Shown one piece after another: positions 9,231-9,889 of a stretch of DNA of 18,386 bases. The translations under genes were made by a program, and so were the position numbers. The stretch spans positions 1 through 18,386 of IMG/VR virus record IMGVR_UViG_2869947659_000009; one strand, written 5' to 3'. Source of the stretch: a virus. Its lineage: Duplodnaviria; Heunggongvirae; Uroviricota; Caudoviricetes. A model generated the notes under the pieces. It worked only from the letters and a program-made list of their open reading frames with translations, was not told the origin of the DNA and did no database searches. The stretch's first letter is position 1. Each line of letters starts with the position of its first letter.

Positions 9231-9428
9231 CTATGTGCACCAGACACATTTTTTTACACCATCGTTAAGTGTTTTAACGTTGCCTGATGGACCGTCGATA
9301 TCAACCACAGTGAATGGGGTTTCTTTATTTTCTGTCTTAATCACGTAGCCAATACGCTTTCCTTCCAGATTAACCTCGTGAACAATGTCATCAGTAGTTA
9401 CAACAGTGGCTTCATAACTGGTAATCAT
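9231..9428 (-). CDS. Hypothetical 65-aa protein
   Basis: ORF MITSYEATVVTTDDIVHEVNLEGKRIGYVIKTENKETPFTVVDIDGPSGNVKTLNDGVKKCVWCT with a strong AAGGAG Shine-Dalgarno 7 nt upstream of the ATG at 9428. C-terminal CxxC. No family recognised. Confidence 0.5.
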   Translation of the reverse strand: MITSYEATVVTTDDIVHEVNLEGKRIGYVIKTENKETPFTVVDIDGPSGNVKTLNDGVKKCVWCT

Positions 9429-9512
9429 GTTTTTCTCCTTAATTAAGGTTGAGCGAACCCCTGCCATTGCTGGCATATAAGAATGAAACCGGATATTTAT
9501 TACGGAACTGTT

Positions 9513-9704
9513 TTAAAGACCTGCCGGGATTTCGTTATTATCATGGTGAATAACTTTATCGACCGGATAACAGTCACCGGGAATTTTCTGTTTCGCTGCG
9601 GCAGTCATACATTCTTTCATTGAGCTGTATACGCCAGTAACCATGTCAACCGGTTCACCGGAAACAAGAAAAACCGTCAGAACGAGTGCAAATACTGTAT
9701 TCAT
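9513..9704 (-). CDS. Hypothetical 63-aa protein with N-terminal signal peptide or membrane anchor
   Basis: ORF MNTVFALVLTVFLVSGEPVDMVTGVYSSMKECMTAAAKQKIPGDCYPVDKVIHHDNNEIPAGL. Its ATG overlaps the stop of the upstream gene (ATGA at 9701-9704). Hydrophobic N-terminus and two Cys. Confidence 0.5.
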   Translation of the reverse strand: MNTVFALVLTVFLVSGEPVDMVTGVYSSMKECMTAAAKQKIPGDCYPVDKVIHHDNNEIPAGL

Positions 9705-9889
9705 TGTGCACATCCTTTTGGCATCAGACGTAAACGAGCCAGCATTGAAACAATGCATATTTTATTTAATAGCTCCCGTTCGTGTTTTCTCTTGTTAATG
9801 GCATCTTCAGTAAATACAGGGTTACTGATAGTGACACCAATTTCAAAACAACCTTCAGACGTATTAACGTTTGGTAATAACGTCTCCAT
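9701..9889 (-). CDS. Hypothetical 62-aa protein
   Basis: ORF METLLPNVNTSEGCFEIGVTISNPVFTEDAINKRKHERELLNKICIVSMLARLRLMPKGCAQ with a GAGGA Shine-Dalgarno 7 nt upstream of the ATG at 9889, starting 10 nt after the Rha stop. Its stop overlaps the next start. Confidence 0.45.
   Translation of the reverse strand: METLLPNVNTSEGCFEIGVTISNPVFTEDAINKRKHERELLNKICIVSMLARLRLMPKGCAQ

Follow-up and report, generated by a model that had tools for sequence, protein, structure and literature searches.

Positions 9231-9889 of the window (the whole stretch of 18,386 nucleotides that was analysed) very probably represent a mosaic joint of two characterised early-left modules, a Qin-type dicB-ydfD pair and a Rac-type racC-recE pair, lying in a degraded prophage of the Shigella/EIEC type in which racC-recE has been inactivated; we assign this reading a probability of about 0.93. 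On the basis of family matches and alignments, the three small ORFs of the region can be identified as dicB, ydfD and a racC pseudogene, three already-known prophage genes. What novelty remains lies in the A7/A8/A9 polymorphism shown by a poly-A tract in racC.

Gene content of the region

The original prediction described three ORFs of 62-65 aa with credible Shine-Dalgarno (SD) sequences, two of them sharing an ATGA stop/start overlap. Reading of the sequence confirmed the coordinates, the SD sequences, the overlap and the location of all three ORFs on the minus strand. The features of the region are the following.

9701-9889, minus strand: ORF1, dicB, 62 aa, GAGGA 8 nt before the ATG
9701-9704, minus strand: ATGA, stop of dicB and start of ydfD, read from the sequence (context TGTGCACAATGAATACAG)
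9513-9704, minus strand: ORF2, ydfD (DUF1482), 63 aa, AAGGA 8-9 nt before the ATG
9231-9428, minus strand: ORF3, 5' part of racC, 65 aa, AAGGAG 6 nt before the ATG
9154-9428, minus strand: racC pseudogene, 275 nt, whose codons 1-60 plus 5 out-of-frame codons constitute ORF3
9249-9255, minus strand: poly-A tract A7, where the -1 frameshift of racC lies (DNA alignment with intact copies)

Upstream of ORF1, a gap of 10 nt separates the stop of a Rha-family gene from the dicB start. Versions of ORF2 and ORF3 of 81 aa, starting at upstream ATGs, were rejected, as they have no properly spaced SD and their starts are not consistent with the families; a 66-aa start (MCTMNT...) found in some Shigella YdfD entries was also rejected, the SD spacing fitting the 63-aa start. 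The plus-strand ORFs within 9231-9889 are all shorter than 60 aa and lie opposite well-supported genes. A search of PADLOC-DB (E <= 0.01) gave no family match for the three ORFs, for a repaired RacC or for Rha, and a weak OmrA-B match at 9071-9150 on the plus strand (E 0.28) was dismissed as chance.

The dicB-ydfD pair

ORF1 matches Pfam PF05358 over its entire length (1-62 of 62, E 3.8e-40, 135.8 bits against a cut-off of 27) and NCBIfam NF049927, 'cell division inhibition protein DicB', with 134.6 bits (cut-off 100). It aligns without gaps to the K-12 DicB of equal 62-aa length with 60/62 identical residues (97%), the differences being K2E and Q36H, and a protein identical to it is recorded on 512 contigs under the name DicB. 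A PDB sequence search with DicB gave no match. ORF2 matches Pfam PF07358 (DUF1482) through residues 4-61 with 80.6 bits (cut-off 25) and, end to end (1-63 of 63), phrog_1092, and shares 47 of 63 residues (75%) with K-12 YdfD, which is annotated as 'lysis protein' in RefSeq. The hydrophobic N-terminus and the two cysteines that had been noted for one of the ORFs belong to ORF2: the Kyte-Doolittle mean of residues 1-15 (15-residue window) is 2.12, and Cys32 and Cys45 align with the cysteines of K-12 YdfD, whose conservation has been noted previously (PMC8835842). Comparison of ydfD with its K-12 counterpart yields 16 synonymous and 17 non-synonymous differences and a dN/dS of 0.24, which indicates that ORF2 evolves as a protein-coding gene.

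The same 4-nt overlap of dicB and ydfD is found in K-12 Qin, in RMDEC364, in phage vB_EcoS-813R8 and in the Shigella locus L007; the junction sequence is identical in the window, in K-12, in E. coli RMDEC364 and in a Shigella contig, and at least 120 IMG/VR contigs contain a 26-nt pattern that bridges the overlap. Judging from these comparisons the overlap is conserved and the pair looks intact in this window, and the two genes would be translationally coupled through the ATGA. The view that these are real early-left lambdoid genes, with the overlapping pair co-expressed, was right.

We infer the molecular functions of the ORFs from the literature on their K-12 homologues. In K-12, DicB binds MinC and the complex is recruited to the septum by ZipA with depolymerisation of FtsZ, and through the same MinC interaction DicB inhibits ManYZ, conferring approximately 100-fold resistance to lambda (PMC6832061). 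By homology, the DicB encoded here would form a complex with MinC at the septum via ZipA and dismantle the FtsZ ring, leading to filamentation, and would block ManYZ with the consequent exclusion of lambda-like phages. K-12 YdfD binds IspG, and the lysis that it causes is rescued by overexpression of ispG or by HMBPP (PMC8835842); according to that article, which cites Masuda et al. 2016, co-expressed DicB or SulA prevents this lysis. The YdfD copy present here is assumed to bind IspG as does the tested K-12 protein; it would then inhibit the MEP pathway and lyse dividing cells, an effect that DicB would counteract.

The racC pseudogene

ORF3 corresponds to the 5' part of racC. It matches NCBIfam NF007306/PRK09790 with 131.2 bits, below the cut-off of 171, and only over positions 1-61 of 91, the match to phrog_4778 (91 positions) being restricted to the same positions 1-61; this low score is due to the frameshift. 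Its 60 retained residues are 95% identical to K-12 RacC, a homologue is called RacC in phage records, and restoring one A gives a protein of which 88/91 residues (97%) are identical to K-12 RacC. The last 31 codons of racC, displaced into the -1 frame, are found at 9154-9249 (MCLVHIGKNLPAEKKAEFLATLIAMKLKGEI). A Pfam match of ORF3 to DUF2969 (E 0.022, 15.6 bits against a cut-off of 25) was rejected as chance, and a PDB sequence search with RacC gave a weak partial match to 6xi1, a flagellin 'hook IN motif' protein (E 1.6e-5), in which no stretch passed on its own and which we regard as unconfirmed.

The DNA alignment locates the lesion in the tract, which reads GGTGT-A7-TGTGTC in the window and carries a 1-nt deletion with respect to intact racC, where 8 nt (T+A7, CACAAAAA in Rac-SA53, or A8) lie between GGTGT and TGTG. 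The intact allele is A8 in L057, L141 and L142 and T+A7 in L003, L120 and K-12; a synonymous GTT to GTA change created the A8 run in this prophage lineage. A frameshifted A9 allele is present in L001/L143, L138, L140 and L144; the closest E. coli relative, an E. coli O121 in which PGAP labels the gene 'frameshifted', has A9. Besides the window, 10 more loci that were assembled independently (L006-L013, L136 and L145) have the A7 allele, and 82 contigs from several Shigella species encode the 65-aa product; the intact 91-aa RacC of otherwise identical sequence is recorded on 999 contigs and falls in the same 90% cluster. When the 10 places encoding an identical YdfD are compared, racC is A7 in two, intact A8 in two and A9 in four, and is cut by an IS in one and absent from the last. 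A second A8 run within racC is constant at 8 in every locus examined.

ORF3 does end in the CxxC that had been remarked on (KKCVWCT); this motif is nevertheless an artefact of the frameshift, because the ending consists of the 5 out-of-frame codons that follow the 1-nt deletion, and ORF3 is not an intact gene. The original prediction had found no recognisable family for any of the three ORFs and had proposed the region as a place for uncharacterised biology. Neither statement is sustained: DicB and YdfD score above curated cut-offs, ORF3 matches RacC over the part that it retains, and the three proteins have the K-12 identities given above. Confident matches to known lambdoid early proteins, named beforehand as an outcome that would tell against the prediction, were thus found. 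The accompanying guess of kil-like, exclusion or anti-defence functions fits well with DicB as a division inhibitor and agent of phage exclusion (PMC6832061) and with RacC as a blocker of a retron toxin (bioRxiv 10.1101/2020.06.22.160242), YdfD being a lysis protein (PMC8835842).

The recE gene and its insertion

racC lies directly upstream of recE, whose N-terminus begins 99 nt after the original racC stop and which is itself interrupted.

8839-9054, minus strand: 5' fragment of recE (exonuclease VIII), a 71-aa ORF cut after about 70 codons (NCBIfam PRK09709, 1-71 of 877; phrog_607, 1-68)
7578-8841, plus strand: IS3-family (IS600-like) element within recE, with ORFs HTH_Tnp_1 (7642-7884) and rve (7881-8816)
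5847-7577, minus strand: remainder of recE past the IS (Pfam Exonuc_VIII on the ORF 5847-7559)

The IS600-like element is flanked by a 3-bp GTC target duplication, and in L006-L013 its flanks are contiguous, window position 8842 onward joining 7577 directly. The remainder of recE is 99.8% identical to recE of the Shigella relatives.

According to a preprint, the retron-Sen2 toxin-antitoxin system is triggered when RecE degrades msDNA, its toxin RcaT is blocked most strongly by the 91-aa RacC of K-12, and racC and recE form a blocker-trigger pair (bioRxiv 10.1101/2020.06.22.160242); blocking by RacC is also mentioned in reviews (PMC8632793, PMC11951105). By analogy with the K-12 homologues, an intact RecE would trigger this system through msDNA degradation and an intact RacC would block RcaT. 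As read from the alignments, the pair would be doubly inactivated here, by the -1 frameshift (A8 to A7) in racC and by the splitting of recE by the IS600-like element.

Mosaic structure

Similarity to Rac extends over 8842-9477 and similarity to Qin over 9443-9915, the latter stopping about 25 nt before the racC start. As in Qin of K-12 (b1575-b1576), dicB and ydfD occur in the same order with lengths of 62 and 63 aa and the 4-nt ATGA overlap, and about 75 nt past ydfD are common to the window and K-12. The Qin pair comes after ydfA-ydfB-ydfC-dicF, under repression by DicA, whereas the pair in the window follows the Rha-family gene, itself preceded by isrK and C4; furthermore no DicF intervenes here (Rfam), an IS2 fragment has taken the place of the immunity region, and downstream racC is interposed where Qin has ydfE, an exonuclease-like pseudogene. 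On the other side of the joint, racC and recE appear as the same pair with the same spacing as in Rac of K-12 (b1351-b1350), where they are the blocker and the trigger of retron-Sen2; the N-terminus of recE gives a match to the exonuclease VIII equivalog, and a kilS-like region is kept further upstream. Unlike in Rac, neither gene is intact, racC being frameshifted (A7) and recE interrupted by the IS, and racC is preceded by dicB-ydfD and not by kilR-ydaE. kilR-ydaE of Rac is the positional analogue of dicB-ydfD, occupying the slot between the kilS-like region and racC, and likewise comprises a small inhibitor of the FtsZ ring followed by a second small protein; the two pairs have no sequence relationship, and KilR acts on FtsZ without MinC.

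The distribution of the three genes was examined as a check of their co-conservation across prophages, which did not emerge. Among the matches listed, only 2 of about 107 IMG/VR dicB-ydfD loci that have the overlap and enough downstream sequence carry racC as the next gene. Part of the query is matched in 4553 of a set of 5426 complete E. coli genomes, and only two cover at least 80% of it in one place; in these two, dicB is truncated by IS1. Most of the Shigella relatives with the A7 racC have lost dicB to an IS110-family insertion, together with the whole of ydfD except for its last ~60 nt. The dicB-ydfD-racC trio is not a conserved unit. Absence or disruption of the ORFs in close relatives together with an unconserved overlap had been named as a further outcome contrary to the prediction; the first part is what we found, with ORF3 frameshifted and dicB and most of ydfD lost in most close Shigella relatives, but the overlap of dicB and ydfD is conserved.

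Upstream context and prophage setting

The region directly upstream of dicB contains the following features, all outside 9231-9889.

9900-10451, minus strand: Rha-family (antirepressor-like) gene, directly upstream of dicB (Pfam Phage_pRha, TIGR02681)
10506-10593, minus strand: C4 antisense RNA (Rfam RF01695, 79 bits, above gathering)
10618-10694, minus strand: IsrK sRNA (Rfam RF01394, 64.8 bits, above gathering)
10729-10701 and 10640-10623, minus strand: promoter-like site and terminator-like site, respectively, at C4/IsrK

The mechanical ORF of Rha reaches 10745 and its N-terminal extension overlaps the two Rfam RNA matches; an internal start, M99, has a GGAGG SD. The arrangement of isrK/C4 with promoter-like and terminator-like sites before a Rha/antirepressor-like gene resembles isrK-orf45-anrP of Salmonella Gifsy-1 and c4-icd-ant of P1/P7 (PMC4825925). 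The C4/IsrK site is the probable transcription start of the remaining operon. The isrK promoter is the sole recognisable promoter left upstream; the remaining genes would be transcribed by read-through from it, the region further upstream having been replaced by the IS2 fragment.

Upstream of C4/IsrK lies a stretch with homology to the kilS locus of K-12 Rac, and beyond it the IS2 fragment (11126-11691); a literature search on KilS found nothing. No DicF gene reaches the Rfam gathering score next to dicB, and a sub-threshold DicF-like match (28.6 against 48 bits) at 10917-10967 falls within the kilS-like region, some 1 kb upstream. At one end of the window lie yebY and ryeA/ryeB and at the other an ipaH gene; IS elements abound in it, and the same prophage remnant is present in several Shigella assemblies. 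Its gene content points to a degraded prophage remnant of the Shigella/EIEC type at the yebY-ryeA/B locus.

Alternative explanations

Decay at a run prone to slippage is the most likely source of the polymorphism in the racC tract. One could think instead of a functional switch, either a reversible ON/OFF contingency among A7, A8 and A9 or production of low-level full-length RacC from A7 by -1 ribosomal or transcriptional slippage on A_AAA_AAA. All three tract lengths do occur among near-identical loci (2/2/4 in the eight tract-bearing relatives with identical YdfD), the racC SD is intact, and the ORF3 frame GTA AAA AAA TGT contains a canonical X_XXY_YYZ heptamer on which a -1 shift restores exactly the wild-type GVKKMCLV... 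sequence. However, the invariance of the second A8 run suggests that a small number of events were inherited and that switching is not frequent, and the destruction of recE by an IS in the same element, with the loss of dicB and most of ydfD in relatives, speaks for general decay. Slippage in particular finds here neither a strong structure downstream (a local hairpin of 6 bp is predicted) nor a spaced SD-like stimulator upstream, and the A9 allele would need the opposite shift. Moreover, transcription in E. coli slips little on runs of seven A, and A_AAA_AAA is a weaker slippery sequence than A_AAA_AAG, which we have counted against slippage. A switch of either kind is very unlikely in our estimation; were it true, production of the anti-retron blocker RacC would be tuned. 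That the deletion is a homopolymer error in the sequencing of the window deserves mention given that such runs are error-prone on several platforms, yet the recurrence of A7 in the 10 independent assemblies, together with the 82 contigs recording the 65-aa protein, led us to reject this cause, and we consider it scarcely believable.

Decay is also to be weighed against the proposal that ORF3 is a functional 65-aa neo-protein, in which the N-terminal domain of RacC and a new CxxC tail have a retained or a new activity. A residual or altered activity of the 65-aa fragment is conceivable because this form is fixed in many genomes, the exact protein being found on those 82 contigs of several Shigella species, and has a strong SD; the close identity of its N-terminal 60 residues to K-12 RacC is in line with this. 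Nevertheless the CxxC derives from out-of-frame codons after a homopolymer indel, one third of RacC is lost, including a predicted amphipathic C-terminal segment, and the wholly different tail of the A9 allele implies that no particular tail has been selected. With the NCBIfam score lying under the family cut-off (131 vs 171) and PGAP treating the sister allele as a pseudogene, a neo-protein appears very improbable. As for the idea that the three ORFs make up one novel co-functional three-gene system, they are adjacent on one strand, closely spaced and each provided with an SD, and the same order with an intact racC is seen in a few genomes (L057, L141 and L142). For each of the genes a partner and a function of its own have been published, though, and racC comes next in so few dicB-ydfD loci (the 2 of about 107 among the matches listed), and coverage of at least 80% in one place is so rare (2 of 5426 E. 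coli genomes), that this idea is effectively refuted by the distribution data; in addition Rac has kilR-ydaE before racC, and in Qin-like phages an exonuclease gene directly follows ydfD.

Discussion

The finding has little importance except for annotation, in which the names dicB, ydfD and racC (pseudogene) should replace 'three hypothetical proteins'. The joint described here suggests that division-inhibitor modules, dicB-ydfD in this prophage and kilR-ydaE in Rac, have been swapped into the same slot upstream of racC-recE. In Shigella-type genomes the retron trigger recE and the blocker racC appear to have decayed together, with dicB and ydfD preserved intact in the copy described here. Should dicB still be expressed, it could have an effect on the division of the host cell and its sensitivity to ManYZ-dependent phages, as is known for DicB.

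Prophage ends and tail-fibre-like remnants

The main features are listed below.

Features of the prophage remnant and of its interrupted genes
1-342, plus strand: yebY (DUF2511)
463-607: ryeA/ryeB (SraC/SdsR) small RNA pair
7578-8841: IS600-like element, splitting recE (5847-9054), with a 3-bp GTC target duplication
10506-10593: C4 antisense RNA, within the Rha N-terminal extension (Rfam, 79 bits, above threshold)
10618-10694: IsrK, within the same extension (Rfam, 64.8 bits, above threshold)
11126-11691: IS2 fragment (99.5% identity with IS2E, a remnant in K-12 Qin)
12058-13740: tail-fibre-like remnants, with a DUF4376 match at 13291-13740
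16671-18386, minus strand: IpaH-type effector gene, 571 aa (LRR_TTSS and NEL E3 ligase)

The prophage remnant has the IpaH-type gene at its far end and yebY with ryeA/ryeB at the near one, which puts the window in a Shigella/EIEC genome, at the prophage integration site on the yebY side. The tail-fibre-like stretch shows 96-99% identity to the tail-fibre regions of the relatives and contains a minus-strand ORF of 296 aa for which no Pfam match was found; several plus-strand ORFs overlap both this ORF and the remnants.

The region upstream of dicB

The sequence that lay upstream of the kilS-like region, with the immunity region and the early promoter, has been replaced by the IS2 fragment, and the remaining early-left genes are probably left without their native repressor-controlled promoter. 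The kilS-like region itself (10917-11040, minus strand) shares 90% identity with the locus of K-12 Rac that carries the annotation of small RNA KilS, is closed by a terminator-like hairpin (10949-10922) and gives an Rfam match to DicF which lies below threshold (28.6 versus 48 bits, E 0.0014). KilS and DicF may accordingly be related small RNAs, sited upstream of division-inhibitor genes; a search of the literature library for KilS yielded no papers.

The mechanically called Rha ORF, directly upstream of dicB, comprises 281 aa including an N-terminal extension of 98 codons (10451-10745, minus strand), and the long form is annotated in the relatives by PGAP and by gene callers. The extension coincides with both C4 and IsrK, and the same stretch also matches the Pfam family Phage_ASH (63.6 bits) and PHROG 995; the Rha domain fits an internal start at M99, preceded by a GGAGG Shine-Dalgarno motif. 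Either translated RNA genes have gone into the making of part of the protein family, or this stretch has a dual use.

The racC-recE pair

Among otherwise near-identical prophages (the window, L001, L057 and L136-L145) the racC tract at 9249-9255 (minus strand) occurs as A7, A8 or A9, of which A8 leaves the gene intact, A7 causes a -1 and A9 a +1 frameshift; the other A8 run of racC, 40 nt downstream, keeps its length of 8 throughout the same set. In the A7 allele the tract forms an in-frame A_AAA_AAA heptamer, at which a -1 slip would, as read from the sequence, restore exactly the wild-type RacC. In a sequence search, residues 17-64 of the repaired 91-aa protein (9237-9380, minus strand) weakly matched a protein of the 'flagellin hook IN motif family' (PDB 6xi1; E 1.6e-5, 28 bits), which is a possible clue to the fold of the RacC N-terminal region.

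Between racC and recE lies a strong terminator-like hairpin (9123-9145, plus strand; 10 pairs, 6 of them G-C, followed by TCTTTTTTT), which points against the direction of the operon, is kept in Rac-like relatives and may act as a stop for antisense transcription. In the Shigella relatives (L006-L013) the flanks of the IS600-like insertion in recE are joined directly, which marks this insertion as specific to the window. With recE split by this element and racC frameshifted, the RecE trigger and the RacC blocker are thus very probably both inactivated in the window.
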